The position numbers were made by a program, and so were the translations under genes. The notes under the pieces are model-generated. The model saw only the letters and a program-made list of their open reading frames with translations. It was not told the origin of the DNA and did not search any database. This document shows positions 18,865 through 60,853 of a DNA stretch of 64,000 nucleotides, piece by piece. Within the stretch, counting starts at the first letter, position 1, and every line of letters begins with the position of its first letter. This DNA is from Candidatus Shapirobacteria bacterium. GTDB taxonomy: Bacteria; Patescibacteriota; Microgenomatia; UBA12405. The stretch is from assembly GCA_003542615.1 (NCBI GenBank), contig DPKG01000014.1, positions 8,521 through 72,520 of the forward strand, given 5' to 3'.

Positions 18865-21657
18865 TTAGGGTAAATTCCGTTCAATAAAATCCTGACTGAT
18901 CCAGCCTTCAACATTGATTCTGGTGAGAATCACTTTGACCCAACGTTTGGTCTCAACTAAAATTTCAGCCGTTTGATCTTGAGTTAGTTTGTGGGTGACA
19001 CTGGAATTAAAGGAAGGTTTGGAATAAAGATAGACAGTGTCGTAACTGGGAACACGGATATTAATTTTTGAAAGAGGGGCACTGGAGCTGGAGGGAGCGG
19101 GAGATTGAATTTCCTGGACCAGGAGGCTGAGTATCCAGCCCTGAGTTGAATCATAAGAAGTCTGTAGCCATTTTTCGCCTAAATCGTTGTATTTTTCGGA
19201 ATAAATAGGAATTTCTATGCCGGAGGGAATGGTGGTAATTAAAACGGAATTGCTGTCGGGTTGACTGCGAAGGTTGATTTTATTACCGTTGGTAGGGGCA
19301 ATAATGACTTTTTTAAGAATAGAAAGGGTGGGAGTCGGAGTTTGGGTGGGGGTAATTTGAGGAGTATTGGTGGGTTCTTGCGGGGGTTTTGTGGGAGATG
19401 GTTCGGTTTTCTGTGAAGGGGTGGGGGTAGCATCTGTAGTGGCAGAAAGGACAGAAGGGAGAATGGCAGATTTTTGGGGTCGGCTTTGAAAAATTTGGTA
19501 AGTAACAGAAGAAGATAAACCAAAAGAAAGCCCTACTATGGCGGCAATAGTAATTCCTCGATGAATTTTGGGAGAAGCACGGGGTTTGGTGGGAGGGGGA
19601 ATACCATTGTCTTGGGGTTGGCTTGGGGGAGCTTGAGAAGTGGAATAAACGGGAGGAGTAATGAGAGAAGGTGGGGTGGGTTTGGGGGGGGTGAGAGATC
19701 TAATGTAAATTGCCAGGAAAGCAAAGCCGGCCACAAGTACTATAATAATACCCCAAACCGATATGGCCTGAACTCCCCCGATGAAGCCGGAAAGGGTACC
19801 GATGGATCCGGCGGATGAAACTATGGTTTTTAGGCTCTCGAGATTGCGGTTGACTGAATCAAGTTCAATTTTGGTTTCATAATAGCCTATGATTTTGTCT
19901 TCCGGGAGTTTGGCTTGTTTTTGGAGAATTGTTATTTTGTCAAGGGAGGCAAGGATATTTGAGTGGAGGGTGGTACCTTGGGCAAAATATGAGGTATTTT
20001 TGAGGGGAGCAAAAAGTTCATCAGCCTGTTTTTTGAGGGAGTCAATTTTTTCTTGAGGAATAGTCCAAATATCTTCAACTTGAACTTCAAGAATGATGGT
20101 TCCTCCCGGTTTTAGGGTGATATCTGCAGAGGCATAATAGACAGATTTGGTGGCGTCAAATTTTATTTCTAATTCAGGAGATTTTTTAATAATATTTTCC
20201 TGTTTTACTTCTGAGGGGAAATAATAAAGATAAGGAACTGTTTGAGTGGAAGTTTTAGAAGGATTGGTAATTAAACTTTTGAAGATGATACTGCCTTCTT
20301 CAAGCCAGGAGGTGATGATGGGTTTACTGACAACTGTTTCGAGTAGGGTGCGGTTGGTACTAAGGAGTGCCTTCATAGCCAAAACCTGGTTCATAAGTTC
20401 AGAAAGATCGGTATTTTGGGTAATATTGTTGTTGGTAATGTTTTCGACATTGGAAACAGAGTTAATGGCAGCGATATCGGTAGAGAGATCTTTGACCTTG
20501 TCGTAAATATCGGTAGCAGAAAGACTCCCCCATTTTTCAAGTAAATCATTAAGGTCGAGAGTACTATTGTCGATGGCTTCGATGGCTTCTTTGACCTGTT
20601 GGATACGGCCAAAAATTGAAGCAGTGTTTGAGGTGTCGGAGGTAGAACCGATTGAATTTTCAATGGAGTCTACATAAGCCTTGAGAGTGATGATTTCATC
20701 GTAGGCGGTAGTTGATTTGCCATTGAAATTTAACTCGGAACGGAGGGCGGTAGCAGTGGTGTAAGCGCCATTGGCGGCATTGTAGATGGTAGAGGCAGAA
20801 TTGGTGCCCCATTTATCGATAAGACACTGGACCTGACCAAAAACAGAGTCGTCGGTGCAGGTTTGGGTATTGTTGCCTAATTCTGATTCAAGAGAGTCAA
20901 TATAATTTAAAATATCGGTAACACTATAAGTACTCCATTTGGCTAGAATATTGTCGGTGTTGGTCTGAATGGTGGTGACTGAAGTTTGGAGAGAATCGAC
21001 TTTGGAATCGATGGTGACGAGATCATTTTGAACTGAGGTAAGCTGAAGAGAGATATCGGAAAGACTGGTGCCGACGGAATTGACGGTGTCGGTGGTGGCA
21101 AGGGTGGCACCGTTGTCGAGAGTTGGAGAAGAGAGGGTTTTGGAGGTGTGTCCCCAGATATCACTAACCAAAGTACCAAATCCAGAGAGAGAACGATCAG
21201 AATAAGTCCAGATTTCCTGGACAATATTTCCAAAGGAACTGATAGTGCGGTTATCGTAACTCCAAACTGATTCGGCGGTATCTTGGGTAATAGTAAAGCT
21301 TTTGTCCAGACACATATAGCCATCAATGGTAGTACAACAAATTTGGCTACGGTATAAACCAAGTGGTTGACCGGAGGTGCCGATATCGTAGGAATACCAA
21401 CCGTCAGCGGAGGGGGGAAGTGTAGCGGAATTAATAAATACGGTACCATCCGGATAACGAGCGGTAAGAGTACAGTCAGCATCGGCTACGGGAACATATT
21501 CATCGTTGAAAAGAAATTCACCAACGATACAATCAGCAGTATTGGTACATTGCTGATATTCTCCGGGGGCGGCAGATACGGGAAAGGCCGGGACCAAAAA
21601 AAAGATCCCGGCTAAAAGAATTTTTAGCCATTTGCAATATTTTGTTACCGTCTTCAT
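18865..21657 (-). CDS. large surface protein: signal peptide, Cys-rich N-domain, helical region, TM anchor, Pro/Thr-rich linker, two C-terminal SH3b-like domains
   Basis: 930 aa; N-terminal 'LVPAFPVSAAP' signal; TM 'WGIIIVLVAGFAFLAIYI'; 'PTPTPSQKTEPSPTKPPQEPTNTPQITPTQTPTPT' linker; two ~60-aa SH3b-like repeats ending in W-rich motifs. Confidence 0.6.
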   Translation of the reverse strand: MKTVTKYCKWLKILLAGIFFLVPAFPVSAAPGEYQQCTNTADCIVGEFLFNDEYVPVADADCTLTARYPDGTVFINSATLPPSADGWYSYDIGTSGQPLGLYRSQICCTTIDGYMCLDKSFTITQDTAESVWSYDNRTISSFGNIVQEIWTYSDRSLSGFGTLVSDIWGHTSKTLSSPTLDNGATLATTDTVNSVGTSLSDISLQLTSVQNDLVTIDSKVDSLQTSVTTIQTNTDNILAKWSTYSVTDILNYIDSLESELGNNTQTCTDDSVFGQVQCLIDKWGTNSASTIYNAANGAYTTATALRSELNFNGKSTTAYDEIITLKAYVDSIENSIGSTSDTSNTASIFGRIQQVKEAIEAIDNSTLDLNDLLEKWGSLSATDIYDKVKDLSTDIAAINSVSNVENITNNNITQNTDLSELMNQVLAMKALLSTNRTLLETVVSKPIITSWLEEGSIIFKSLITNPSKTSTQTVPYLYYFPSEVKQENIIKKSPELEIKFDATKSVYYASADITLKPGGTIILEVQVEDIWTIPQEKIDSLKKQADELFAPLKNTSYFAQGTTLHSNILASLDKITILQKQAKLPEDKIIGYYETKIELDSVNRNLESLKTIVSSAGSIGTLSGFIGGVQAISVWGIIIVLVAGFAFLAIYIRSLTPPKPTPPSLITPPVYSTSQAPPSQPQDNGIPPPTKPRASPKIHRGITIAAIVGLSFGLSSSVTYQIFQSRPQKSAILPSVLSATTDATPTPSQKTEPSPTKPPQEPTNTPQITPTQTPTPTLSILKKVIIAPTNGNKINLRSQPDSNSVLITTIPSGIEIPIYSEKYNDLGEKWLQTSYDSTQGWILSLLVQEIQSPAPSSSSAPLSKINIRVPSYDTVYLYSKPSFNSSVTHKLTQDQTAEILVETKRWVKVILTRINVEGWISQDFIERNLP

Positions 21658-21754: not shown

Positions 21755-21787
21755 CAAAAAAAGGGAATCGATGATTCCCTTTTTTTA
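21755..21787 (-). terminator. bidirectional intrinsic terminator hairpin
   Basis: AAAAAAAGGGAATCGATGATTCCCTTTTTTT: an 8-bp perfect stem with A/T runs on both sides. Lies between tatA copy A and the 930-aa gene. Confidence 0.5.
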
Positions 21788-21810: not shown

Positions 21811-21969
21811 TTATTTTTTATTTTCTTCTTTGCCGGAAAAAGCTTTACGGAATTCTTTAATGGCATCACCAATTCCACGACCTAATTCAGGTAATTTTTT
21901 ACCGCCGAAAAGGAAGAGCAAGACGACGGCAATGATTATGAGCTCAGTTGAGCCAATATTTCTAAACAT
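21811..21969 (-). CDS. tatA: TatA/E family protein, copy A (52 aa), not in ORF track
   Basis: Manual translation MFRNIGSTELIIIAVVLLFLFGGKKLPELGRGIGDAIKEFRKAF...: N-terminal TM helix plus the 'FGxKKLPE' TatA signature and an amphipathic helix. Confidence 0.65.
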   Translation of the reverse strand: MFRNIGSTELIIIAVVLLFLFGGKKLPELGRGIGDAIKEFRKAFSGKEENKK

Positions 21970-22011
21970 TGGTGCCTCCTAGTTAATTAATAAAGAGTTT
22001 GATAGTGTTTG

Positions 22012-22146
22012 TTAGCTTTTTAGAGACTTTTTGATCTCTTTGATGGCTTCAGCAATACCCTTTGAAAGTTCCGGCAACTTACTTCCACCGAAAAGGAAGA
22101 GGAGTATAACTCCAGCTAGTATTAATTCGGGTGTTCCTATATTCAT
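22012..22146 (-). CDS. tatA: TatA/E family protein, copy B (44 aa), not in ORF track
   Basis: MNIGTPELILAGVILLFLFGGSKLPELSKGIAEAIKEIKKSLKS. Confidence 0.6.
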   Translation of the reverse strand: MNIGTPELILAGVILLFLFGGSKLPELSKGIAEAIKEIKKSLKS

Positions 22147-22164
22147 AATTGTTGTTTTGCCTCC

Positions 22165-22896
22165 TTAACTTATCTTAATTGAGTTTTTTAGATTTGCAAT
22201 AGGATAAAGACTTTTTTGAGGATTAAAAAGTAAGGTCCCTTCAAACAATAAAGCCAAGGGAACAAAGATTAGAGACATGGATAAAATATCGGTGGGAGGT
22301 AAAAGAATATCAAAAATTAAAAGACCGGCATATACGTATTTACGTTGAGCAGTGAGAATATTTCTGTCAATAACACCGAGACGAAGTAAAATTGTTAAAA
22401 AGATGGGAAGTTCGAAAACAATTGCCATACAGGTACCCATGACTACAACCTGGGTCAAAAAAGCTTCAATGTCCCAAAAATTACCGATATTAAATTTCTG
22501 ACTGGTATTGACGTAGATGTCGATGACAAACTGGAGGATACGAACACCAAAAATAAAACCGGCAATAAAAAGAATTATACTGATAGGTAGAAGTTTGGTA
22601 ATAAGACGAAATTCATGAGGACGAAGAGCGGGTTTGATAAATCCCAGAAGTTCATAAATTAAAAGCGGTCCGGCAAAAATAATGCCGGAAAGAATACTAA
22701 TGCTAATAGCCAGATTGATGAATTGGTAGGGCGAAACCAGGACGATATTAATATTTTCGAGGTTAAAAATAGAAATAAGACTTGTGATTATCCAACGATT
22801 TTTGACAGCACCAAAAATAACACCAATAACAAAGGCAAGAGCGACCTTAAAAACTTTTGACCGGATCTCGTTTAGATAATGGTCGAATTGGGGCAC
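22165..22896 (-). CDS. tatC: Sec-independent protein translocase TatC
   Basis: 243 aa, 6 TM; N-terminal 'HYLNEIRSKV' (TatC LxEHLxELR region), 'FELPIF', 'LLPPTDILSMS' (TatC LLTPPD motif). GTG start. Confidence 0.7.
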   Translation of the reverse strand: MPQFDHYLNEIRSKVFKVALAFVIGVIFGAVKNRWIITSLISIFNLENINIVLVSPYQFINLAISISILSGIIFAGPLLIYELLGFIKPALRPHEFRLITKLLPISIILFIAGFIFGVRILQFVIDIYVNTSQKFNIGNFWDIEAFLTQVVVMGTCMAIVFELPIFLTILLRLGVIDRNILTAQRKYVYAGLLIFDILLPPTDILSMSLIFVPLALLFEGTLLFNPQKSLYPIANLKNSIKIS

Positions 22897-22898
22897 AT

Positions 22899-23054
22899 TT
22901 ATTTCTTGTTACCCTGATCTTCGAAGCCTTTACGAAATTCTTTGACTGCGTCACCAATTCCACGGCTTAATTCGGGTAATTTTTTACCGCCGAAAAGAAG
23001 GAGCAGGATAAGACCTAATATGATTAATTCTGTGGTTCCGATGTTGCTGAACAT
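22899..23054 (-). CDS. tatA: TatA/E family protein, copy C (51 aa), not in ORF track
   Basis: MFSNIGTTELIILGLILLLLFGGKKLPELSRGIGDAVKEFRKGF... Confidence 0.65.
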   Translation of the reverse strand: MFSNIGTTELIILGLILLLLFGGKKLPELSRGIGDAVKEFRKGFEDQGNKK

Positions 23055-23070
23055 AAATTTGAATTAAATT

Positions 23071-23205
23071 TTAATTTTTGAGAGCTTTTTTAAATTCTTT
23101 TATGGATTGAACAATGCCACGGGTAAGTTCAGGAAGTTTTCGGTCGCCGAAAAGGATGAGTAAGATTATACCTAATAAAATTAATTCGTTGGTACCGATT
23201 CTCAT
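23071..23205 (-). CDS. tatA: TatA/E family protein, copy D (44 aa), not in ORF track
   Basis: MRIGTNELILLGIILLILFGDRKLPELTRGIVQSIKEFKKALKN; ATGA overlap with copy E. Confidence 0.6.
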   Translation of the reverse strand: MRIGTNELILLGIILLILFGDRKLPELTRGIVQSIKEFKKALKN

Positions 23206-23384
23206 GATTCGTCCTCTTTGTTGATGTCTTTTTTAACGTCTTTAAGTTCTTTATTGATGTTTTTGAGTTCTTTTCCGGCTTGACCGGCACCTTTGGCTAA
23301 TTCACTGACTTTTTTACCACCAAAAAGAAGAAGTAAAATAAGGAGAAAAATAAGAATTTCGGTAAGGCCAATATTATTGAACAT
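23202..23384 (-). CDS. tatA: TatA/E family protein, copy E (60 aa)
   Basis: The track ORF 23202-23420 is trimmed to the internal Met 'MFNNIGLTEILIFLLILLLLFGGKKVSELAKGAG', which gives the TatA signature. Confidence 0.6.
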   Translation of the reverse strand: MFNNIGLTEILIFLLILLLLFGGKKVSELAKGAGQAGKELKNINKELKDVKKDINKEDES

Positions 23385-23428
23385 ATAAGGAATCTTAAAT
23401 ATAAAACGACAAAAGTTCAAGTAGCAAA

Positions 23429-23938
23429 TTATTTGAGGGAAGCCAGGGTGGCTTTGGATTTGGTGTCTTTGAGAGTTTTACCGGTGCTTCCAGGAATAGT
23501 ATGTGAACTGACGAGCTCATCCCAGACTGCGTCGGCAATGGCATTGATATCTTCGACAGTGACAGTTGAAGTTGCGGCTACCAAACCAGCAGAATTTGAT
23601 GATCTGACTGAAACTTGGTTGACGTTGGTACGGTCACTGACGTTACTGTTGGCGTTGACAAGATTAACGGCATACTGACCATCTTCAAAGGTAATAGTAT
23701 AGGGTGGTAATATCTCGATAACTCGGGCAAAAGTAAGACTTCCTAGGGTGACTTCAGTGTTGTGGTTGTGGGTCTTTAACAAGTAGATTCCATACACGGC
23801 GGCTTCGTAGGCTTTTAAGGCTAATCTAAACCAATTAAGGTCCAGTTCTCTGATTTCCGTGGGAATACTTTGAATTAAAGTCATGTCTTCCCTAGGGATG
23901 AGAATGACAAAGGTAAGGGGGTCTATAGAAATGGCCAT
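23429..23938 (-). CDS. hypothetical protein (169 aa), last gene of the virion-like operon
   Basis: No signal peptide; Ser/Thr/Val-rich C-terminal half. No family recognised. Confidence 0.4.
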   Translation of the reverse strand: MAISIDPLTFVILIPREDMTLIQSIPTEIRELDLNWFRLALKAYEAAVYGIYLLKTHNHNTEVTLGSLTFARVIEILPPYTITFEDGQYAVNLVNANSNVSDRTNVNQVSVRSSNSAGLVAATSTVTVEDINAIADAVWDELVSSHTIPGSTGKTLKDTKSKATLASLK

Positions 23939-24162
23939 TAGCTACCTCCAGCATAGACTCGAGTTTGGATAGCAACTAACTGTTTATTGATGTTTTCAAA
24001 CTTAGAGTCGTACTGTCTGATAATACCATCCAAATCTTTGACTTGCTTTTGTAATTTCTTGACTAATTCTTCGGTTAATTGGTTGTAGACAATAATTGCC
24101 TTGATATTGTTGATGGTGTTTTTTTCAAAAATCTCTCGTAGTTGTTGTTCGCCGGCATCCAT
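23938..24162 (-). CDS. hypothetical coiled-coil protein (74 aa)
   Basis: Heptad-rich, Lys/Gln/Glu-rich; start/stop overlap with the 23429 gene. Confidence 0.35.
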   Translation of the reverse strand: MDAGEQQLREIFEKNTINNIKAIIVYNQLTEELVKKLQKQVKDLDGIIRQYDSKFENINKQLVAIQTRVYAGGS

Positions 24163-24220
24163 ATTTGTATTCTAATGATACGACAAGTGACTGATATGTT
24201 CAATGATCGGAGAATTATTC

Positions 24221-24514
24221 TTACTTCTTAAAAAAACTTTTCTTGGTTTTTGGGGTTTCAGATTCATCGCTTTCATCAACGGCTGATTCGTTATCTTTGG
24301 TTGGATTTTCCATATATTTTTCAATTTCTTTGCGGATTTGATAAGGATCATATCCCGATGTCAGGTACAAATGATATCTATTTTCAAAAAATATAACAAC
24401 ATTTTTCTGAAGTGATTTTTCTTGAGCTTCCTCTTTGATTTTGAGTGCTTCACTGCGGGATTTGACCTTAGTGAATACTATGTGTTTATTTAAATCTTCA
24501 AATGTTTGTGGCAT
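24221..24514 (-). CDS. hypothetical protein (97 aa), acidic C-tail
   Basis: No family recognised. Confidence 0.35.
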   Translation of the reverse strand: MPQTFEDLNKHIVFTKVKSRSEALKIKEEAQEKSLQKNVVIFFENRYHLYLTSGYDPYQIRKEIEKYMENPTKDNESAVDESDESETPKTKKSFFKK

Positions 24515-24534
24515 AAATACTTTTAATTAATATT

Positions 24535-26304
24535 TTAGGTATCACTTGTACGGATGGCGGTAGCGGTGTTGTTGGAGTTAGTTTGTGACCAGGGAGCGAT
24601 ATATTGTTTGATGGGGGTATTGTTAACTTCACCTCCATCTCTAACTATAATAACTAAGCTTAAAGCAGTAACATCGCTATGAACACTAGTAAAAGAGAGG
24701 GAGCCCGGCGCACCGGCCAGGTCATCTATATAGGAAATATAAACACCATTGCTGATACTGGCATTAACTGTTAAAAAATCTGCTACATTAGGGACGTCAG
24801 CTTCGGAAGCTGCTGGGTCAATAGTAAATGTTTTACTAGTCGTATTAACAGCAGTATATATTAGTCGTCTTTCAAAGCCATCATTGTCGATAACCCTAAT
24901 AGTTCCACTTGCCGGAGTATAGTCGGGGACAGCATTGACTACGACTGAAGTAATATTGTCAGCAGCTAAAGCAGTAGAAAGTGTCATTTGGGTCTTGTTG
25001 ATGGCCGGATCGTTATTGCTATCGACACCAAAACGAGGGGCAACTAATACCCGATCTTCGCCATCTACCAGGCCAGCCAAGGTGTTGGTAACATAGTTTG
25101 GCGGAGATTTTGGAGCATCACCTTCCAAATCGGAAAGAGAATCGCTTGATGATAAATCGGTTGGTTCAATACCTAATCCATAAGCACCGATGATAGCTGA
25201 ACCGGTAGAAGCACCACAGAAAGGTTTAGAAACGGTACGCTCAAGGTAAGACGTTACCGAGGCCACTCCGGTGGCACCAGTGATAGAACCGTTGGGGGCA
25301 GCTCCAGTTAGAAGCTGAATATATAAATGGGTGGCTGATGTAGTGCTATTGGCGGCGAAAAGCTGACCAGTGCCAAGGGTAGCGCCAGCACCCCAAGTTA
25401 ATAACTCAGGTTCGACAAAAGTTCCAGTTGATTGGACGACTGTTATGTCGTGGGTGATGCCACGGAATAATTCACCGCTGATACCATATAAAGTAGTTGC
25501 AGATGAACCATCACGGGAAAGATATTTAGTGTATTCATAGAAATCGTTGATGGTAGTATGGGTACCGGAAATGTTCCAATCGGAATAATAATGTTCATCC
25601 TCAAGATTGTTGTCTATGTCCAATGCAGCGTAACCTTCGGTATTAGTGTAGTCAGTACTCCAACCGGAGACCGTGCCGGAATCCGTTTGGTTGTTAAGGT
25701 CGGTGGAATCAGTCAAAGCCAAAACGTTGTTACCCCGGGCGGTAGCATTGATGGTAAACTCCGAGTAAGTATAGCCGAAACGGCGGCAGGTACCGATAAG
25801 TTTTCTGCCATCAATGGGGTTTCCGCCGGATACGGTTTTGATCATAAAACGGTGAGAGATACCGGAGGTGGCGTCGGCATTTAGACCAGCATTGTTATAA
25901 TTCCAGAAACTTAAGGCACTGCTTATAACAGCGCCATTTTGGATGATTCTGATTTGGACGTCAGCATTACCGAAGTTAACGATACCGTCGTAGATGTCGT
26001 CACCATCATTTTGGATGATAGAACCATCGTATAGATGTTCGGCGGCGGTGGCATCGATATTGTAATTATTTATTAGGGTAATAATGTTATCGGTGGACCT
26101 GGCAGAAGGATTAAGACTGGTAATATCGAGTTCGTCGTCTCCAGCAGCAACAGCATCGTCGGCTAACCCCTGGAGCCAACGGTGAAATTCAATGACAGTA
26201 GCATAAGACGGAGTACCACCGGTGCCGTCGTGATCGCCACCGACATATCTAATATCGTTGGCTACTCCACGGGTAATTGTCCAGTCAGTTGCAACTAGTG
26301 CCAT
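24535..26304 (-). CDS. phage virion-like fibre/receptor-binding-like protein, paralog 1 (589 aa)
   Basis: No signal peptide; Gly/Thr/Ser/Asn-rich; shares 'LTDSTDLNNQTD' and 'INDFYEYTKY' blocks with the 27118 gene. Local GC is clearly above the window average. Confidence 0.5.
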   Translation of the reverse strand: MALVATDWTITRGVANDIRYVGGDHDGTGGTPSYATVIEFHRWLQGLADDAVAAGDDELDITSLNPSARSTDNIITLINNYNIDATAAEHLYDGSIIQNDGDDIYDGIVNFGNADVQIRIIQNGAVISSALSFWNYNNAGLNADATSGISHRFMIKTVSGGNPIDGRKLIGTCRRFGYTYSEFTINATARGNNVLALTDSTDLNNQTDSGTVSGWSTDYTNTEGYAALDIDNNLEDEHYYSDWNISGTHTTINDFYEYTKYLSRDGSSATTLYGISGELFRGITHDITVVQSTGTFVEPELLTWGAGATLGTGQLFAANSTTSATHLYIQLLTGAAPNGSITGATGVASVTSYLERTVSKPFCGASTGSAIIGAYGLGIEPTDLSSSDSLSDLEGDAPKSPPNYVTNTLAGLVDGEDRVLVAPRFGVDSNNDPAINKTQMTLSTALAADNITSVVVNAVPDYTPASGTIRVIDNDGFERRLIYTAVNTTSKTFTIDPAASEADVPNVADFLTVNASISNGVYISYIDDLAGAPGSLSFTSVHSDVTALSLVIIVRDGGEVNNTPIKQYIAPWSQTNSNNTATAIRTSDT

Positions 26305-26403
26305 ATTATTTTAAAAATTATTTTAGAGGTAAATTTATAAATTAGTTAATGAAGTTATATTGTTTATAGCTTTTTAAAATTTGGATGTCAATGACAGGTT
26401 ACC

Positions 26404-26916
26404 CTAAGCCTTTTTGAAGCGGTCGGAAATGTAGAAATTGGTAATATTGTCGCTTTTTCCATCAATAAAATCGTTTAGAGTTTTTTGTCCTAAAGCTATA
26501 ATTTCTTGAAGATTGCTGTTGGTATTGTTGGTAGAAATATAGTTTAAAAATTCACTAAAGGTGACATCGGGAACAGCGGCCATTAAGCTGATAAAACTAT
26601 TAAAAACAGAATCCTTGGAGGCTTCAAATTTGACAAAATCTTGATTGACCAAATCACCGACCTTGGTATCTTTGTCTAAAGTTTTTAAAATATCCATTAA
26701 AACCAAAGATTTAACCAATAAAAAGTTTAGATTCATTAAAATATTACAAGTGGCTAATTGTTTTTTGGTGTAAAGTTTTGGTTTATTGTCAGTATCGGTC
26801 CAATAACTTAGTTTTTGAGGAGAATTGTTACTCCCCTTTTTAAGCATGGTATTGGGAGGTCTTACCCAGTTTCGATTCTTTTGGAGAATTTTTGATTTTT
26901 TGGAAGGATTAATCAT
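26404..26916 (-). CDS. hypothetical protein (170 aa)
   Basis: Basic N-terminus; no family recognised. 4-nt overlap with the upstream gene suggests coupling. Confidence 0.4.
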   Translation of the reverse strand: MINPSKKSKILQKNRNWVRPPNTMLKKGSNNSPQKLSYWTDTDNKPKLYTKKQLATCNILMNLNFLLVKSLVLMDILKTLDKDTKVGDLVNQDFVKFEASKDSVFNSFISLMAAVPDVTFSEFLNYISTNNTNSNLQEIIALGQKTLNDFIDGKSDNITNFYISDRFKKA

Positions 26917-27125
26917 CTTTGGGAGCCTTTGGAATAAATTAAGGCTAACATTTCAAGCATTTGTTTTTGTAATTTGGCAAATTTGTGTTGATAATTATTA
27001 ATTATATCCTGTTTGTTTAGAATATCTTTCTCCAGATGTCGAAGAAGTTTTCGGATTCGTTTGGCTTTTAAAACAGCTTCTTGGAGTTTTTGGGAGGAGG
27101 AATTTTCAAATTCTTCTCTATTCAT
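26913..27125 (-). CDS. hypothetical small helical protein (70 aa)
   Basis: Coiled-coil-like; overlaps both neighbours. Confidence 0.35.
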   Translation of the reverse strand: MNREEFENSSSQKLQEAVLKAKRIRKLLRHLEKDILNKQDIINNYQHKFAKLQKQMLEMLALIYSKGSQR

Positions 27126-29046
27126 CTTTGGCTAATTGAATAATGACTGATAGACCGGTACTGGTATTGACAGTACCACTGATAGCTCCCTGTTGATAGT
27201 AAGGAGTACCGGATGATTTCCGGACCCAACCGGCGACCGGTTGGTTGGCGGTAAGACTTCGGGTATCGCTAATTTCCCCAATGGAGTTAGTGGCACCGTT
27301 GATAATGGCAAAGGTAGCGGTAATACTAGTACCGGTAGCCGGTGATAAATCGAGAGTTTCAGTGGCAGTATAGGTATATTGATTTTCGTTGGTGACAGTA
27401 ACTTCAAAGGCGCCGTTGTAATCGTCGTCATTGGTAACACCTTTAATAATGACGTAATCTCCACTAGTTAGTCCGTGGGCAGTGTGACTGACGGTGGCGG
27501 TGGTACCGGAACCGGTAATAGAGACAGGAGCTTGGTAAAAATAGTTAGCGTTATCGGTAACCCAAACCAGGACGTTGGCAAATTCGATGACCGAAGCAGT
27601 AGCTAAATCCTGAACGGTAATAGTGGTGGCAACGGTACTGGGCGGAGTTTGGATGGTATCAGTAGAATCGGTGAGCTGATAATTGTTGGAGTCGGCACCG
27701 GCCATGTTGTAAACATAAACGCCACGAGCCCCATAAAATTTACCTCCGGCAAAAGTACCGAAAGGAGCGATTTTTACTTCAATTAATGTTTCCGGAGTGC
27801 CGTTAACGAGAGCGGCACCAGTAGAAGAATCGGTGATGGCTTGATTGTCGGTAAAAGTTCCCCTGACGGTATGGAGAGTCAAAATACCAGTGTTGTCACC
27901 ATTGTAATGGTCGGCGGTGATGATAGCAGTACCGGTAGCGGTAGAAACAGCCAGACCTTGGGTGAAAGCAGCGGTGCGGGTGTCATAAGAGAGACGAAGA
28001 GTACCGACTCCGGTATACTGTTCGCCGTTTAAACCATTTAGAGAAGTGGTAGAGGTGCGACGGGTGACGTATTTGGTGTATTCGTAAAAATTTTTGATGG
28101 TATTGCCGCCACAGTTTATAACTACATCGTAAGGTTGCAGGCCATTGCCATTACTTAGATCTTTGGTGTCGGCGCCAAAGGTAAAAGTGATACCAGAAAG
28201 AGCGGCAATGGTACTGATGTCGGTGGTGTTATTTAAGTCGGTACTGGTAGCCAGAGGGATAGGAGAGCGACCACCGGTGGTCATGATAGTTTGATAATGA
28301 TCGTATAATTTACCGTATTCTCGGGCAAAGATAGTGATTACACCGCTATCATTAAGGGTGCCCTGAATGACAATTCTTTGTAAAATGTCAATGTGACCTG
28401 AAGGCCACCAGGCGGTGATTTTGGTACCAGCTTGGATAATATAAATTTCGGTACCTGAGGCAAGAGTACCGATGGTATAGATATTAGCCCAGGTGGTACC
28501 CCCGGTGGCGGCGGCTAATATTTGGGTATCGATGTGAAAATTACAGGTGACATCGCCGGAAGTAGAATCCCAATTGTCGGTAGCGGCATTGCTGGCAGGA
28601 CGAATGACAAGATACTCACCACTGACAAAGAGAAGGGTACCGGAATCACCATCGGCGTGAGTAATAGTGTTGCCAATATCTCCGGAGACGATATTGGTGC
28701 CGGAACGTTTGATGACAACTATACCGGTACGAACAGTGGCAACGCGGGGATAATCTTTGCTAATTAATCCCCCACCATACAAATGTTGAGTAGTAGTTCC
28801 GTCTATATACCAAGGGTCCTGCTGGTCGTCCAAATCGATAAGGCCAATTTGATATTCCGTGGGGGTAATGGCATTAATAGGAATACCGTCATCCATTTGG
28901 GTGGGTTCATCAAACAGGTCTTGAAGAGCAATGTAAAGTTCTCTGACAGAATAAGTACCGGTAGTACCAGACCAGACAATTCTTTTTTGACGGGTTTCTG
29001 ATAGATAGTAAACGGTAAAATCTCCCGATAGAACAGTGCTTGACAT
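27118..29046 (-). CDS. phage virion-like fibre/receptor-binding-like protein, paralog 2 (642 aa)
   Basis: Same motif blocks as the 24535 gene ('LATSTDLNNTTD', 'IKNFYEYTKY') plus similar N-termini. No signal peptide; G/T/S-rich. Confidence 0.5.
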   Translation of the reverse strand: MSSTVLSGDFTVYYLSETRQKRIVWSGTTGTYSVRELYIALQDLFDEPTQMDDGIPINAITPTEYQIGLIDLDDQQDPWYIDGTTTQHLYGGGLISKDYPRVATVRTGIVVIKRSGTNIVSGDIGNTITHADGDSGTLLFVSGEYLVIRPASNAATDNWDSTSGDVTCNFHIDTQILAAATGGTTWANIYTIGTLASGTEIYIIQAGTKITAWWPSGHIDILQRIVIQGTLNDSGVITIFAREYGKLYDHYQTIMTTGGRSPIPLATSTDLNNTTDISTIAALSGITFTFGADTKDLSNGNGLQPYDVVINCGGNTIKNFYEYTKYVTRRTSTTSLNGLNGEQYTGVGTLRLSYDTRTAAFTQGLAVSTATGTAIITADHYNGDNTGILTLHTVRGTFTDNQAITDSSTGAALVNGTPETLIEVKIAPFGTFAGGKFYGARGVYVYNMAGADSNNYQLTDSTDTIQTPPSTVATTITVQDLATASVIEFANVLVWVTDNANYFYQAPVSITGSGTTATVSHTAHGLTSGDYVIIKGVTNDDDYNGAFEVTVTNENQYTYTATETLDLSPATGTSITATFAIINGATNSIGEISDTRSLTANQPVAGWVRKSSGTPYYQQGAISGTVNTSTGLSVIIQLAKDE

Positions 29047-29073
29047 TTTCTTATTTTACAATTTTTGAATTGA

Positions 29074-30678
29074 CTATGTAGAGGCAGTGATATCTTCGAT
29101 TAGAGTAATGGTGGCTGAATAGCCAGTACCAGTAATAGTACCCGATGAGCTGACGGGAATATATTTGGTGTCCCCAGTTGAAGATTTTCTAACACGAACG
29201 TAAATGGCGGCGGGAGTGGTGCCGCCATAACCAAAAGAAACTTCACCATTAATATCCGTATCGGTATTTAATAACACGGAATCATCACTGGAAAGACAGA
29301 CAGCGACTTGGGCTGTTTGTATGGGATCGTTGGTGACATCAACAACGGTGACAGAAACGGGGACAGAAGAAACAACACTGGTGGTGGAACCAGCACTGTT
29401 TTGGACGGATATGGTACCGGTAATACCGGAAGCATTGAGAGTAACCGCTCCGCCGGAATTATTATAAATTACTTCATTTCCGGTAGTACCATCGGTAGTG
29501 GCATAGCCGGTAAAAGTATGACCAGAAAGACTATAAGAATTACCGGCACAAGAGGTATCAAGTTCGATGGCATGACTGGTACCATCGGAGACAAAAGTGC
29601 AGGCGGTAATAACTGAGGGATTAGTAGCTAAAATTGATGAGGCAGCAGTGGTATTGGTAAAAGTACAGTCGGTGAAAGTTCCACCACCCTGGGTAACTAG
29701 AGCACATCTTCTAAAAGTGGCGGAAATGACGGTGCTATTTGATTGAAAGATAAAAGTGTTCATGTCGGTAAAGGAGCTGTTGTTGATATTGACATCGGCA
29801 TTAGCAACAACTTCAAAATCACCTTTAGATAATTGGGTGGACAAAAGGGCGGTAAAGTTGACGTTGTCCCAGGTGACGACCGAACTGGTATTTTTTATTT
29901 CAATCTTATTAAAGGTGGCAAAGGTAGCGGGGGTGTCGTCTATGGTAATGTTGATATTTGAGTCGACAAAGTAACAGGCTGCTGTCTCCCCAAAACTCAT
30001 GAGACCTTTCCAGAGATAACCGGTACCTTCTTTTTGAAATAGACCCCATCTGGCTGTTTGCGCATCGTTGACGGCAGCCATGGCAGCAAAATTGCCGTAA
30101 CCACCGCCGATGTTATCTCCGTTGTCGAAAAGTATCTGGCCACGGCCATAATACATAGCATCAAAACCATGCATGGTTCCCTTGGAAATATTAGAAATAA
30201 CATCAGCGGCGGCACCAAAAAAACGATAGGTACCACCATGGCCGGTACCGACAGTATAATCGGCAGTTTTGGCAGGATTAACAGCATAACATTGCCAGCC
30301 ACCATAGGGATTGCGACCTTTATCACTACCACCAACTCTCCATGCGGAGAAGTTTAAAACATCGGCACCAACGATGGCTCTTAAACCTCCGGAAGCGTAG
30401 TTGCTCATAGCGTTAGCTGGTAAAAGAACGTGCCACATAAAAACGCAGGTGTAGTTAGCAGTAAATGAAGCAGATAAAGAAGAGCCATAATCAAAACAAC
30501 CGGAACAGAGTCCGGTTTTATTATTGGTGTCGGATGAACGACAACCTGAACCTTCAATGTAATAATCACCTTCTCCCAGTGGAGCATCTCCAACAGCCCA
30601 AGCCGTCATTTCCACCCAGGTGCCGCTTTCAGCATTAGTGAGAGGGGTTAGATCAGAATTATATGTGGGTACGGCCAT
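29074..30678 (-). CDS. right-handed beta-helix (pectate-lyase-fold) tailspike-like protein with C-terminal beta-sandwich domain (534 aa)
   Basis: Repeats of the type 'TFRRCALVTQGGGTFTDCTFTNTTAASSILATNPSVITACTFVSDGTSHAIEL'. C-terminal 'VTVVDV...GEVSF' carboxypeptidase-regulatory-like region. No signal peptide. Confidence 0.5.
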   Translation of the reverse strand: MAVPTYNSDLTPLTNAESGTWVEMTAWAVGDAPLGEGDYYIEGSGCRSSDTNNKTGLCSGCFDYGSSLSASFTANYTCVFMWHVLLPANAMSNYASGGLRAIVGADVLNFSAWRVGGSDKGRNPYGGWQCYAVNPAKTADYTVGTGHGGTYRFFGAAADVISNISKGTMHGFDAMYYGRGQILFDNGDNIGGGYGNFAAMAAVNDAQTARWGLFQKEGTGYLWKGLMSFGETAACYFVDSNINITIDDTPATFATFNKIEIKNTSSVVTWDNVNFTALLSTQLSKGDFEVVANADVNINNSSFTDMNTFIFQSNSTVISATFRRCALVTQGGGTFTDCTFTNTTAASSILATNPSVITACTFVSDGTSHAIELDTSCAGNSYSLSGHTFTGYATTDGTTGNEVIYNNSGGAVTLNASGITGTISVQNSAGSTTSVVSSVPVSVTVVDVTNDPIQTAQVAVCLSSDDSVLLNTDTDINGEVSFGYGGTTPAAIYVRVRKSSTGDTKYIPVSSSGTITGTGYSATITLIEDITAST

Positions 30679-31117
30679 ATTTTTCGATTAAAAAGTTATT
30701 AAACTCATTTTTAACATCTTGGGCATTATCTCCTTTTTTGAGATAAATTTTGTTAATTCCATTAGTATTGATAATCACTGAATAACCTTGATTCCCAAAA
30801 TTTTTAATCTGTTGTTTGGCAATTTCGGTCATCTCGAAACGGTGGTCTTGGGTGCCAAAAAAAATATTATCATTAACTTTTTCAAATATCATTTTACAGT
30901 GATCTGGCCTTAATTTGATAGAGACTTTTTCCATTTGATGATAGGCACAACGAAATCCGGCACAGGCTTTTGGGCGATCTTTGTAGATTAGACAGCCTTT
31001 TTTAAGAACACAATGTTTACAAAGTTGATTGGCTGGTTTATTAAGACTGCGTACAGGTAATAGATAGCAACACAGGGTACATTGGCCACAGCGATTTTGG
31101 TTTTCAATATTTGCCAT
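30659..31117 (-). CDS. YkgJ/UPF0153-like Cys-rich (putative Zn/Fe-chelating) protein; first gene of the operon
   Basis: 'CGQCTLCC' (CxxCxxCC) plus further Cys pairs 'CKHC', 'CAGFRC'. Confidence 0.45.
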   Translation of the reverse strand: MANIENQNRCGQCTLCCYLLPVRSLNKPANQLCKHCVLKKGCLIYKDRPKACAGFRCAYHQMEKVSIKLRPDHCKMIFEKVNDNIFFGTQDHRFEMTEIAKQQIKNFGNQGYSVIINTNGINKIYLKKGDNAQDVKNEFNNFLIEKYGRTHI

Positions 31118-31241
31118 AAGCTATTATACATTTGAGCTAAACTTTTTTTAATCTATGCTTAACTTAATTAAAAGTTTTGATCATGATAGTTATAAAAGGG
31201 AGAAATTATTTTTAGTTTCGGTGGAGGAAACAGCAGGTCGT

Positions 31242-32744: not shown

Positions 32745-33605
32745 TCAAAAAATTGTATCAAACGATTCGTAAGTTTGATTTTCTTTGTCGTTCCAGGCGG
32801 TGGTGAAATCAGACACACCATTACAATAAAGGAAGTCTCCTTCTCCTACCCCACTGGTAGTTTCCCGTTGGATGTACCACTGGCCACTTTGGTCGACAAA
32901 ACCATAATAAGAATAGGTGTCGCTGCTGGTGTCATCCATCTTGCTAATCTTGTAACCATCGGTGGGCTGTTTGGCGGCGGGGTCGATTTTGTTGCCACCG
33001 GTATCTTTAATTGAAATGGTGCCGGGGCCGGGGACAGAACCGAAAAAGGAAGCAGAGGCTTTTTTGGGATTGACCAAAGTGAGGGCGGCAAGACCAAGAC
33101 CGGCAGAACCGGCCATTTTGAGAAATTGGCGGCGGCTTTGGTCGGAGATCTGAACCTGAGTTAAATCTTTTTCGGGTGGCGGAGGGGTGGGTTTGGGGGG
33201 AAGGCGAAAATTAAGATGAGAAATTAAATTTTTGATTTGATTGACCAATTCGAGTCCAAAAAAGAAAACTAAGGGAGTAAAAGTAAGACCAAGAATAAGT
33301 TGAAGAGTAGATTGAGCCACCAAAAGATTCATTAGCCAGATAACGGCGACCAAAAGATAACAAAATAAATTTAATATGGAAAAAATAAATCGGGAGATTT
33401 TGCCGGAAATAAATTTTTTGAAAATCAGATAGATTAATACCAAAGTAAAGGCGATCAGAGCAAGGGGATTATTTTTCCAAACGCCAAAAACAAAACCGAG
33501 AACAAGATTTAAAAAGACAAAAAGGAGAGAGTACCAAAAAAGAATGTGATTAAGAGTTATTTTGATTTTCATGGAAATTCCTTTAGAAATTGGGACTGGA
33601 CCCAA
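32745..33605 (-). CDS. membrane protein with internal twin-arginine signal-like segment
   Basis: ~130-aa N-terminal 4-TM domain, 'PPKPTPPPP' linker, then 'SRRQFLKMAGSAGLGLAALTLVNPKKASA' (consensus Tat motif, h-region, AxA) followed by a ~110-aa Gly/Thr-rich domain. Confidence 0.45.
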   Translation of the reverse strand: MGPVPISKGISMKIKITLNHILFWYSLLFVFLNLVLGFVFGVWKNNPLALIAFTLVLIYLIFKKFISGKISRFIFSILNLFCYLLVAVIWLMNLLVAQSTLQLILGLTFTPLVFFFGLELVNQIKNLISHLNFRLPPKPTPPPPEKDLTQVQISDQSRRQFLKMAGSAGLGLAALTLVNPKKASASFFGSVPGPGTISIKDTGGNKIDPAAKQPTDGYKISKMDDTSSDTYSYYGFVDQSGQWYIQRETTSGVGEGDFLYCNGVSDFTTAWNDKENQTYESFDTIF

Positions 33606-56697: not shown

Positions 56698-57432
56698 TTA
56701 ATCGAACTTATGGCTGGCATGACGATAATTGCAAAATTCACAGTCGGGATTTGAATTGGGGATGGTTTCACTATTTAAACATTCGTGGGCCTTTAGGATA
56801 GTATCTTCAACCCAGGAATCATCACCAGTGTGCTCGACGATAGTCATTTTGAAATTTAGTTTGCCATCAAAGGCGGGTAGGTTTTTGTCGGCGTTGGCAA
56901 AAACAAAAAATCCCCTATTACTGACCTTAAACCCATTTTGCCTAAATAACCATTGATAAAAGTCCATTTGTCTTTTGTATCCTTGCTTATACTGATCCTC
57001 GAGTGATATTTCTTTTTGGGTACTAGTCGATTTGTAATCGACGATATAAAACTCCCCTGCCGGATTTATCCAAACATCATCGACAGCTCCAAAGACATGA
57101 AATTTAGTAGGTTCGTGGTCAACACTTATACCGGTAAAATTGGCTCTCCAGGTATCCATTCGATCGTCTTGATATGGTATGGCGTCAATACCGTATTGCT
57201 CCATCAACTCATGTGTCTGGCCGTTCTTGCGAAGTAAGTCGAATTCTTTTTTCAATAATTCGTCTACTGCTGAATTGAGGGTGTATCCGGGCATAGAAGG
57301 TCTCCCCACTCCTAGGCGTCGGTCCAAATAAAAACATTTGGGGCATTTGACAAAATCTTCAATTTTGCTGCGGCTGATTTGATAAAATTTCGATTCTTCT
57401 GGTTTGTACACTCCTTTATATGATGGGTGCAT
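56698..57432 (-). CDS. PD-(D/E)xK nuclease, Cas4/RecB-like, with Cys cluster
   Basis: 'VDDVWINPAGEFYIVDYKS' (D...E.K core), 'QMDFYQ' (QxxxY motif). N-terminal 'CPKC' and C-terminal 'C-x12-C-x2-C' as in Fe-S RecB-family nucleases. Confidence 0.55.
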   Translation of the reverse strand: MHPSYKGVYKPEESKFYQISRSKIEDFVKCPKCFYLDRRLGVGRPSMPGYTLNSAVDELLKKEFDLLRKNGQTHELMEQYGIDAIPYQDDRMDTWRANFTGISVDHEPTKFHVFGAVDDVWINPAGEFYIVDYKSTSTQKEISLEDQYKQGYKRQMDFYQWLFRQNGFKVSNRGFFVFANADKNLPAFDGKLNFKMTIVEHTGDDSWVEDTILKAHECLNSETIPNSNPDCEFCNYRHASHKFD

Positions 57433-60141: not shown

Positions 60142-60853
60142 TAAACCTTAAAAGTTTTTCTCCTTTGTCTGTAATAGAAAAAGCTCCGCCGGTAACCCCA
60201 TTGATCATTCCATTTTGCTGTAAAACGTTGAATACTGTCGCTCTCTGACCTGGATCTATAATAAATGACTGCCACGCAATATTATATGAGTCGTAGGTAA
60301 TAATACTTTTATCTTTTAAATCAAAAAACCATTTTAGAACCCGCTTCGTTGTGTCCACAAAAAATAAAGCGAGGTAACTAAATTCATATATCTCTAAAAG
60401 TGCTTGCTGGGCCATTAGTTGTTCTTCAGTTTGGGCTTTTTCTTGTTTGTTCTTATCCAGTAGTTTTTTGAGCTCATCTACTTTCGCCATTTGCTCTGGA
60501 TTATCAACTGGGAGTTCTTTATTTTTCCCATCAATTTTTACGTTTTCAACTTTGGGCTCTTGCTGTCTTTCATCTGTACCAGGAACTTTTGGTTTATGGT
60601 TTTCCAAAAATATTTCTATTGAGTTATGAAATTTTCTCATAAAAACAAAAAAACCTAAAACTCCTAACGTTGGCCAAGAAAGTAAAATCTGTAGTAAATC
60701 CGTTGTCTGTTTTGCACTGTTTTCATTGTATTTGGGAACGATAAAAATAATTAATGCAACCAATCCAATTACAATAAAAAAAAACAAAACTATGCCTAGC
60801 AAATAAGGCAATTCTTGTTTCCCCCATTCATATATTTTTTTAAAATTACCCAT
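60125..60853 (-). CDS. hypothetical membrane + coiled-coil protein inserted between mod and res
   Basis: 242 aa; two N-terminal TM helices, Lys/Glu/Gln-rich coiled coil, C-terminal globular part. Overlaps the mod stop and the res start. Confidence 0.4.
   Translation of the reverse strand: MGNFKKIYEWGKQELPYLLGIVLFFFIVIGLVALIIFIVPKYNENSAKQTTDLLQILLSWPTLGVLGFFVFMRKFHNSIEIFLENHKPKVPGTDERQQEPKVENVKIDGKNKELPVDNPEQMAKVDELKKLLDKNKQEKAQTEEQLMAQQALLEIYEFSYLALFFVDTTKRVLKWFFDLKDKSIITYDSYNIAWQSFIIDPGQRATVFNVLQQNGMINGVTGGAFSITDKGEKLLRFIGFVK

Follow-up and report, generated by a model that had tools for sequence, protein, structure and literature searches.

Syn5 gp53-like paralogues in a candidate phage-derived gene cassette beside Tat genes of a Candidatus Shapirobacteria chromosome

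In a 64,000-nucleotide stretch of the genome of a Candidatus Shapirobacteria bacterium (contig DPKG01000014.1, positions 8,521 to 72,520; hereafter the window), we analysed two long minus-strand genes taken from the list of open reading frames (ORFs), encoding the 589-residue protein A (24535–26304) and the 642-residue protein B (27118–29046). Our comparisons indicate that A and B are anciently diverged paralogues, A-type and B-type, of one large unnamed family, and that this family is related to gp53 of Synechococcus phage Syn5, its only characterised relative. Both genes lie in a co-directional array together with genes for twin-arginine translocation (Tat). We consider it probable that A and B represent a gp53-related appendage scaffold, in a cassette that was captured from phage, kept in a cell of the Candidate Phyla Radiation (CPR) and coupled to Tat. 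An earlier sequence-only reading had taken the two proteins for duplicated and diverged fibre or receptor-binding proteins under diversifying selection.

Results

Homology of A and B

A BLASTP comparison of A with B yielded 55.5 bits (E 3e-12) at 29% identity over 244 aa (A173–409/B241–476), and a separate amino-terminal segment (A30–100/B27–98) aligned with an E-value of 3e-4. The best of 300 residue shuffles of B reached 27.3 bits against A. Comparing the profiles of the A family (53 sequences) and the B family (43 sequences) resulted in a near end-to-end match over 533 columns with a probability of 100% and an E-value of 1.4e-43, so that the alignment at the amino termini and at two internal blocks, which the earlier reading had noticed, is borne out. 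The first block reads STDLNNQTD in A (aa 200–208; 25681–25707, minus strand) and STDLNNTTD in B (aa 268–276; 28219–28245, minus strand), and the second is FYEYTKY in A (aa 255–261; 25522–25542, minus strand) as well as in B (aa 320–326; 28069–28089, minus strand). Both blocks coincide with columns that do not vary within the A family (L197, D199, D202, L203, N204 and N205; N253, Y256, E257 and K260) and are therefore genuine family signatures rather than a low-complexity coincidence, set within homology that extends over nearly the full lengths of the proteins.

The family core of B comprises residues 1 to ~470 and is followed by a β-sandwich carboxy-terminal region (residues 472–642), and relative to A and gp53 the protein contains an insertion of ~80–100 aa (about residues 98–195). 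The β-sandwich region also occurs on orthologues, elsewhere, of the 534-aa gene that neighbours B; the last ~170 residues of B show 67% identity to the carboxy terminus of one of them (L010; L numbers denote the compared loci). B is a mosaic protein. The small coiled-coil ORFs downstream of the two long genes, of 70 aa after B (cc70; 26913–27125, minus strand) and of 74 aa after A (cc74; 23938–24162, minus strand), are likewise homologous to each other (E 8e-9), indicating that the repeated unit exceeds one gene.

Homologues of A number more than 4,172; among the 120 listed, most are full-length at about 55–75% identity, and no Pfam domain is present. The B profile retrieved 2,059 representatives at 50% identity. 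Only a few relatives bear a name, either Patescibacteria or Candidatus Beckwithbacteria. Among proteins on viral contigs, one is 63% identical to A, and another matches the first 476 residues of B at ~52% identity, whereas A and B share only ~29% with each other. Both types are also present in Saccharibacteria-labelled loci, for example in L017 with an A-type protein of 704 aa and a B-type protein of 2,993 aa. The proposed duplication consequently holds insofar as A and B are true paralogues, but a recent local duplication was rejected, as each copy is nearer to viral homologues than to its neighbour and both types occur in distant lineages.

Giant B-type members of 2,900–4,263 aa were also observed, with the family domain at the carboxy terminus and several repeated matched stretches. 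They are encoded in L017 (12326–21307), L019 (7579–16353) and L026 (12833–21580), and P0241 (4,263 aa) is a further one; in L017 and L019, labelled Saccharibacteria, and in L026, labelled Gammaproteobacteria, the giant gene directly follows the A-type gene.

Selection and variability

We used the close relative L122, whose five TatA proteins and 74-aa protein are identical to those of the window, to determine dN/dS. A is 97.6% identical to its L122 counterpart with a dN/dS of 0.13, and B is 91.6% identical with a dN/dS of 0.11 and a single variable patch at residues 121–180 (dN 0.30). All nine cassette ORFs are intact, with dN/dS values of 0.05–0.18 for those that differ from L122. A and B are thus conserved and under purifying selection, in contrast to the diversifying selection that had been suggested. 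A hypervariable region together with raised dN/dS, looked for as the mark of a receptor-binding protein, was observed for neither of them: A shows full-length conservation among the listed homologues and B varies in one patch only. The carboxy termini of B-type proteins do vary among family members. Identities to four related genomes are discordant (98/64/65/84% for A and 92/85/78/58% for B), implying that recombination shuffles the cluster.

The view that no diversity-generating retroelement (DGR) is at work was sustained. The window contains no pair of template and variable repeats, no repeat in it involves A or B, and the repeats it does have are confined to five paralogous TatA genes and a pair of tRNA-Arg genes. 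A Pfam scan of 30 window ORFs revealed no reverse transcriptase, the remaining ORFs not having been scanned. The tRNA-Arg repeat measures 50 nt at 78% identity (8173–8222/13075–13124); each copy spans the beginning of a tRNA-Arg gene (anticodons GCG and CCG) together with sequence upstream of it.

Pronounced variability was instead observed for the upstream neighbour of B, a 534-aa protein (w534; 29074–30678, minus strand) that recurs as a partner of A/B-family proteins. It shows 34% identity to its L122 counterpart (L122 8424–9977), while the flanking genes are 92–100% identical. The hypervariable amino-terminal ~440 residues share ~25% identity, the conserved carboxy-terminal domain of ~95 residues ~75%. 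The sequence of w534 reads as β-helix-like, and its replacement looks like allele swapping via recombination. Behaviour resembling that of a specificity determinant is shown by w534 and not by A or B.

Relation to Syn5 gp53

Neither A nor B matched any family in Pfam, PHROG, NCBIfam or PADLOC, and the cassette proteins as a whole gave no meaningful matches in these libraries. Sequence searches of the Protein Data Bank (PDB) returned nothing for the A and B family profiles or for the 169-aa and 534-aa proteins. The AF2 model of B was confident (pLDDT 89.5), that of A weaker and poor in the first 200 residues (pLDDT 70.5), and a Foldseek search of the PDB with the A model gave nothing significant. 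Compared with known fibre or spike families and folds, A and B matched none in sequence or fold except for generic β-sandwiches. In tblastn searches of GenBank phages, A and the 169-aa protein had no match and the 534-aa protein one weak match; B matched Syn5 gene 53 (“structural protein”, E 1e-6), the sole lead to Syn5.

Profile alignment with hhalign corroborated this lead, aligning the B family (B20–333) to gp53 (residues 22–262) with a probability of 97.2% and an E-value of 4.7e-11. With broader profiles, which drew on all the loci retrieved, the probability was 98.3% (E 2e-14) for the A-seeded and 97.4% for the B-seeded profile. A narrow A-only alignment did not match gp53; A is tied to it via B and via the A-seeded broader profile. 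Overall, the family core matches gp53 at 97–98% over ~210–230 columns, spanning the amino-terminal helix and the WANIYTLG, TVFAR, DLNN and YEYxKY regions. The profile of the 169-aa protein showed a weak match to Syn5 gp55 (84%, E 7.5e-6), and all other pairs of cassette and Syn5 proteins remained below 2%. The Syn5 gene order, gp53 (446 aa), gp54 (622), gp55 (156), gp56 (70), gp57 (131), gp58 (169) and large terminase, resembles the window cassette from gp53 to gp58 in order and sizes.

Syn5 gp53 reportedly forms, together with gp54, the horn, an appendage on the capsid vertex that lies opposite the tail. The closest characterised relative of A and B is hence a phage head-appendage protein and not a tail fibre, which argues against the receptor-binding or fibre identity assigned to them before. 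For Syn5, gp55 and gp58 have been described as knob-like outer capsid proteins that join the capsid at a late stage (Gipson et al. 2014, PMC4102127), and the horn is attached after the tail (PMC4238041).

The cassette in phages

A-type genes were found on at least 312 and B-type genes on at least 273 IMG/VR contigs, and several of the A/B-bearing viral contigs carry recognisable genes for large terminase, portal, protease and major head protein. A typical phage cassette encodes an A/B-family protein, a ~500–700-aa protein of the 534-aa family, a ~70–90-aa coiled coil and a gp55-like domain, the last either alone or heading proteins of up to 745 aa with variable carboxy termini. We analysed neighbourhoods in 121 loci for the A type and in 80 viral loci for the B type. 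The 534-aa family adjoins the A-type gene in 70 of the 121 loci, and the 169-aa (gp55-like) family is present in 93 of them; B-type genes are mostly paired with the 534-aa family alone, since among the 80 B-type loci 59 have a neighbour of that family and eight a gp55-like gene. The regular neighbour measures ~530–620 aa. The 74-aa coiled-coil family occurs in 43 loci, 32 of which are viral.

The cassette stands directly after the major head gene in L043 and L049, between the portal and the protease-capsid gene in L118 and L090, between terminase and portal in L073, and directly upstream of the terminase in L081, L059 and L112. A is much more widespread than the head genes: it occurs in 118 loci (median identity 55%), the L043 head protein in three and the L043 terminase in seven. 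The GC content of cassette loci ranges from 26% to 72%. The cassette is mobile, independent of the phage backbone, including its type of terminase or capsid, and resident in head-gene neighbourhoods. As its position varies but stays within these neighbourhoods, a head appendage would be favoured over a tail part. In lambda-like viral contigs, a collagen-like protein of ~235 aa with GxY repeats is encoded between the portal and the A-type gene (L118 7963–8670, L090 4376–5077, L085 145–864).

The chromosomal array and its Tat genes

The window carries a chromosomal gene complement, including SHMT, KsgA, ClpB, four tRNAs, YibE/F, a type III restriction-modification system and TatC. Close B homologues are located on contigs of 824–865 kb and a related TatC on a 949-kb contig. 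The GC content is ~38% (37.9%) for the window and 42.2% for the cassette. When ORFs of at least 120 aa from viral loci were compared with the window, matches were confined to 23477–31093 plus one methylase. The unannotated window ORFs tested showed no head or packaging PHROG matches, and the window has no homologue of the head-gene families of related viral contigs; no search was aimed at genes for sheath, tube or baseplate. A complete prophage was rejected, since no head or packaging genes matched in the window.

On the minus strand the array runs in the order 152-aa cysteine-rich protein, w534, B, cc70, 170-aa protein, A, 97-aa protein, cc74, 169-aa protein, three TatA, TatC and two TatA. 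It thereby comprises two tandem cassettes, from the 152-aa to the 170-aa protein and from A to the 169-aa protein, forming one co-directional array with the Tat genes, and its intergenic gaps are short. The first gene (30659–31117, minus strand) encodes the 152-aa protein with a CGQCTLCC motif, which matched phrog_9155 (E 7e-7) and whose homologues adjoin A in the viral loci L042, L046, L060, L064 and L076. The 170-aa protein (26404–26916, minus strand) has homologues only in L003–L006, L010, L016 and L033; it is confined to window-like chromosomal loci and absent from the viral contigs examined. The 97-aa protein encoded after A (24221–24514, minus strand) is restricted to the same loci. The cassette member cc74, 100% identical in L122, is found in phages and CPR loci, and the 169-aa protein (w169; 23429–23938, minus strand) is the one weakly similar to gp55.

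The Tat block (21811–23420, minus strand) consists of TatA genes at 23202–23420, 23071–23205 and 22899–23054, TatC at 22165–22896, and TatA genes at 22012–22146 and 21811–21969. TatC was identified by Pfam (3e-38), and the TatA genes form a five-copy repeat family in the window. The TatA paralogues of 72, 44, 51, 44 and 52 aa surround the single TatC in a 3+1+2 layout that is kept in related genomes; five TatA represent an unusually high copy number for a genome under 1 Mb. Immediately upstream of the first array gene lies a promoter-like site (31123–31151, minus strand), and in the gap directly after the last TatA a terminator-like hairpin (21755–21787, minus strand; 15 pairs, the longest stem in the scanned stretch). 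Both are consensus matches only, and between them they enclose the whole array.

A twin-arginine signal was detected in a neighbouring 286-aa ORF (32745–33605, minus strand), with SRRQFLK at residues 157–180 scoring 22.9 bits against TIGR01409 (cutoff 16.7). Homologues of this ORF were found in 24 genomic loci and adjoin A-like genes in most CPR loci. Neither A nor B matched TIGR01409 in the NCBIfam scan, and no RR motif was seen by eye at their amino termini. The signal of the 286-aa ORF is internal, following several hydrophobic segments and a proline-rich linker; since its homologues measure about 205–330 aa, the true start may be downstream. Homologues in Saccharibacteria-labelled loci have KR in place of RR. 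On the other side of the array lies the gene for a 930-aa membrane or surface protein (18865–21657, minus strand; Pfam SH3_3, 1.5e-16), a conserved CPR neighbour of the cluster. Its sequence displays a signal-peptide-like hydrophobic amino terminus, a cysteine-rich N-domain containing VWxYxxRT-type repeats, and homologues of the N-domain occur in 22 genomic loci and in none of the viral ones.

Elsewhere in the window, the type III restriction-modification pair (57436–62723, minus strand) consists of a ResIII helicase followed by a methylase (TypeIII_RM_meth). Beside it is encoded a 244-aa protein (56698–57432, minus strand) that matches phrog_31195 and a PHROG labelled as CRISPR/Cas system associated.

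Linkage of cassette and Tat in other CPR loci

The array order of the window recurs in L003–L005 and L122. More distant loci exhibit the simpler order A-like, 534-like, coiled coil, gp55-like, one further gene, TatC and TatA, with a TatC that is 30–47% identical to that of the window. Their labels read Saccharibacteria, Parcubacteria or Patescibacteria, and a few have implausible bin names. Taking TatC as the anchor (related TatC with at least 4 kb upstream, n = 29 metagenomic loci), we found a same-strand upstream gp55-like gene in 16 of the 29, usually together with an A/B-family gene. In the literature on CPR and Tat and on CPR and phage-like clusters, we found no description of this locus.

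Regular neighbours in CPR loci only are the twin-arginine-signal protein, a large surface protein and a gene that looks cohesin-like but has no Pfam match. The flanks of L021 carry release factor, FtsX and sortase. In Saccharibacteria-labelled loci, the counterpart of the 930-aa surface protein contains MG2 and dockerin domains (Pfam); in L021 (6086–8490, minus strand), with equivalents in L017, L019 and L020, it is encoded beside a membrane-anchored, cohesin-like-looking protein. This arrangement suggests a putative cohesin–dockerin surface pair near the cluster. In Saccharibacteria-labelled loci, the gene that separates the gp55-like gene from TatC was suspected of encoding a peptidoglycan hydrolase, but Pfam gave this no support. 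L018–L028 further contain, directly upstream of the A-like gene, a conserved zinc-ribbon-like ORF of ~60–100 aa (VVKC..C....CPFC, ending KESFKIWK; for example L021 9766–9966) between the genes for the Tat-signal protein and the A-like protein. CPR-type clusters of cassette, TatC and surface protein also occur under Gammaproteobacteria or Pseudomonadales labels of metagenome-assembled genomes (L006, L010, L016, L020 and L026), probably as a result of mis-binning or mislabelling.

Discussion

Among known systems, the horn-related gene block of Syn5 (gp53–gp58) is the closest match, sharing with the cassette the homology of the family core to gp53, the weak one of the 169-aa protein to gp55, a similar gene order with similar sizes, and a place beside the terminase as in the viral loci L081, L059 and L112. 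In contrast to A and B, gp53 is shorter, and in the window the cassette lies in a chromosome, occurs twice and is linked to Tat genes, with no capsid that a horn could sit on; a phage-genome setting beside capsid genes was found for the viral relatives and not in the window. Modular tail fibres and tailspikes (T7 gp17-like, and branched spikes of the K1-5/CBA120 type) are likewise β-rich multidomain proteins with a β-helix-like partner swapped by recombination, mosaic carboxy-terminal domains across neighbouring genes and small coiled-coil accessory genes. They differ in that A is not variable, that the match does not go past generic β-sandwiches, that the cassette resides in head-gene regions independently of the backbone, and that the 534-aa protein reverses the usual fibre layout, with its conserved part at the carboxy terminus and its variable part at the amino terminus. 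With tailocins, gene transfer agents and phage-like translocation structures, the array shares phage structural genes fixed in a chromosome under purifying selection without a full phage, but the part retained here resembles a head appendage and not a tail, and we know of no Tat linkage for any of these systems. As in Tat substrates and hitch-hiker export, the genes share one array and one direction with TatC and five TatA and have a neighbour with a bona fide twin-arginine signal. As A and B differ from Tat substrates in carrying no such signal peptide, any export of them would be piggy-back or take another route.

In the reading we favour, A and B would be the subunits that form the conserved scaffold of an appendage, fibrous or spike-like (horn-like), with variable specificity supplied by the neighbouring 534-aa protein and exchanged by recombination. 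The phage-derived assembly would be retained in the CPR cell for a cellular purpose coupled to Tat, which would move the assembly or a partner out of the cytoplasm, most plausibly for export or surface display. A more specific version has the horn-type cassette, once captured by CPR bacteria, assembling in the cytoplasm, being exported in folded form by a Tat system with multiple TatA and being displayed at the surface, where the β-helix-like subunit might set host or partner specificity for episymbiosis. Folded export could then piggy-back on the neighbouring twin-arginine-signal protein. We regard this version as a tentative and rather doubtful extension.

Several observations weigh against the favoured reading. 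Among the cassette proteins we found no twin-arginine or other signal peptide, the separate 286-aa ORF excepted, and about 45% of the related TatC loci are without the cassette. No homology was detectable between the 534-aa family and gp54 (1% probability), the coiled coil and gp56, or the 169-aa protein and gp58, so that the correspondence with Syn5 comprises one strong link, one weak link and gene order. To our knowledge, moreover, the Syn5 horn itself has no known function. Finally, a rough neighbour-joining (NJ) tree, which is distance-based and weak at depth, places chromosomal copies among viral ones; the interleaving fits repeated exchange and weakens a simple single domestication, and a single domestication event is accordingly unsupported.

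Of the other explanations, a decaying prophage remnant without present function, adjacent to Tat by an accident of insertion, would account for an appendage cassette standing by itself, with no head, tail or lysis genes having turned up in 64 kb (sheath, tube and baseplate genes not specifically searched for), for its GC content slightly above the window mean and for the interleaved tree. Decay is hard to reconcile with nine intact ORFs and their low dN/dS, with an identical cc74 in L122, or with tight intergenic gaps and one terminator-like site after the last TatA. An accident of insertion, in turn, would have to explain an order next to TatA and TatC that is kept down to 30–47% TatC identity under Saccharibacteria, Parcubacteria and other Patescibacteria labels, and a cassette in 16 of 29 TatC-anchored loci. 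We therefore consider a remnant unlikely. Local duplicates of a fibre or receptor-binding protein that diversify toward different receptors would agree with the homology of A and B, with the hypervariable patch of B, with the differing B-type carboxy termini and with β-sandwich domains resembling those of adhesins and phage fibres. Local duplication with diversifying selection is nevertheless largely refuted by the gene-wide dN/dS of 0.11–0.13 and by the full-length conservation of A among thousands of homologues. The greater closeness of each copy to viral homologues, the coexistence of both types in distant lineages and a head-appendage protein as the closest characterised relative point the same way, and we give this explanation very little credence.

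An anti-phage device, in which capsid-binding appendage proteins made by the cell would bind or poison the capsids of phages carrying the same cassette, is to us similarly improbable. Cassette-bearing phages are abundant, many chromosomal loci encode a gp55-like protein cut down to the conserved N-domain while phage versions have long carboxy termini, and the allele replacement of the 534-aa protein suggests an arms race. PADLOC, however, returned no match for any of 10 cluster proteins, such a device would leave the linkage to Tat, to the Tat-signal protein and to the surface proteins unexplained, and we know of no precedent for it.

The family described here is very large, with more than 4,000 close A homologues and 2,059 B representatives, and matches nothing in the family libraries searched. 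Its link to Syn5 gp53 gives the horn a wide family and suggests that horn-like head appendages may be common in uncultured phages. For annotation, long β-rich paralogues of this kind should not be called “tail fibres”. In several CPR lineages the chromosomal cassette beside Tat is a candidate for a phage-derived surface apparatus, which would be relevant to the largely unknown host-attachment machinery of these bacteria. As some Saccharibacteria are cultivable and mutable, its role could be tested there if a culturable strain carries the cluster.

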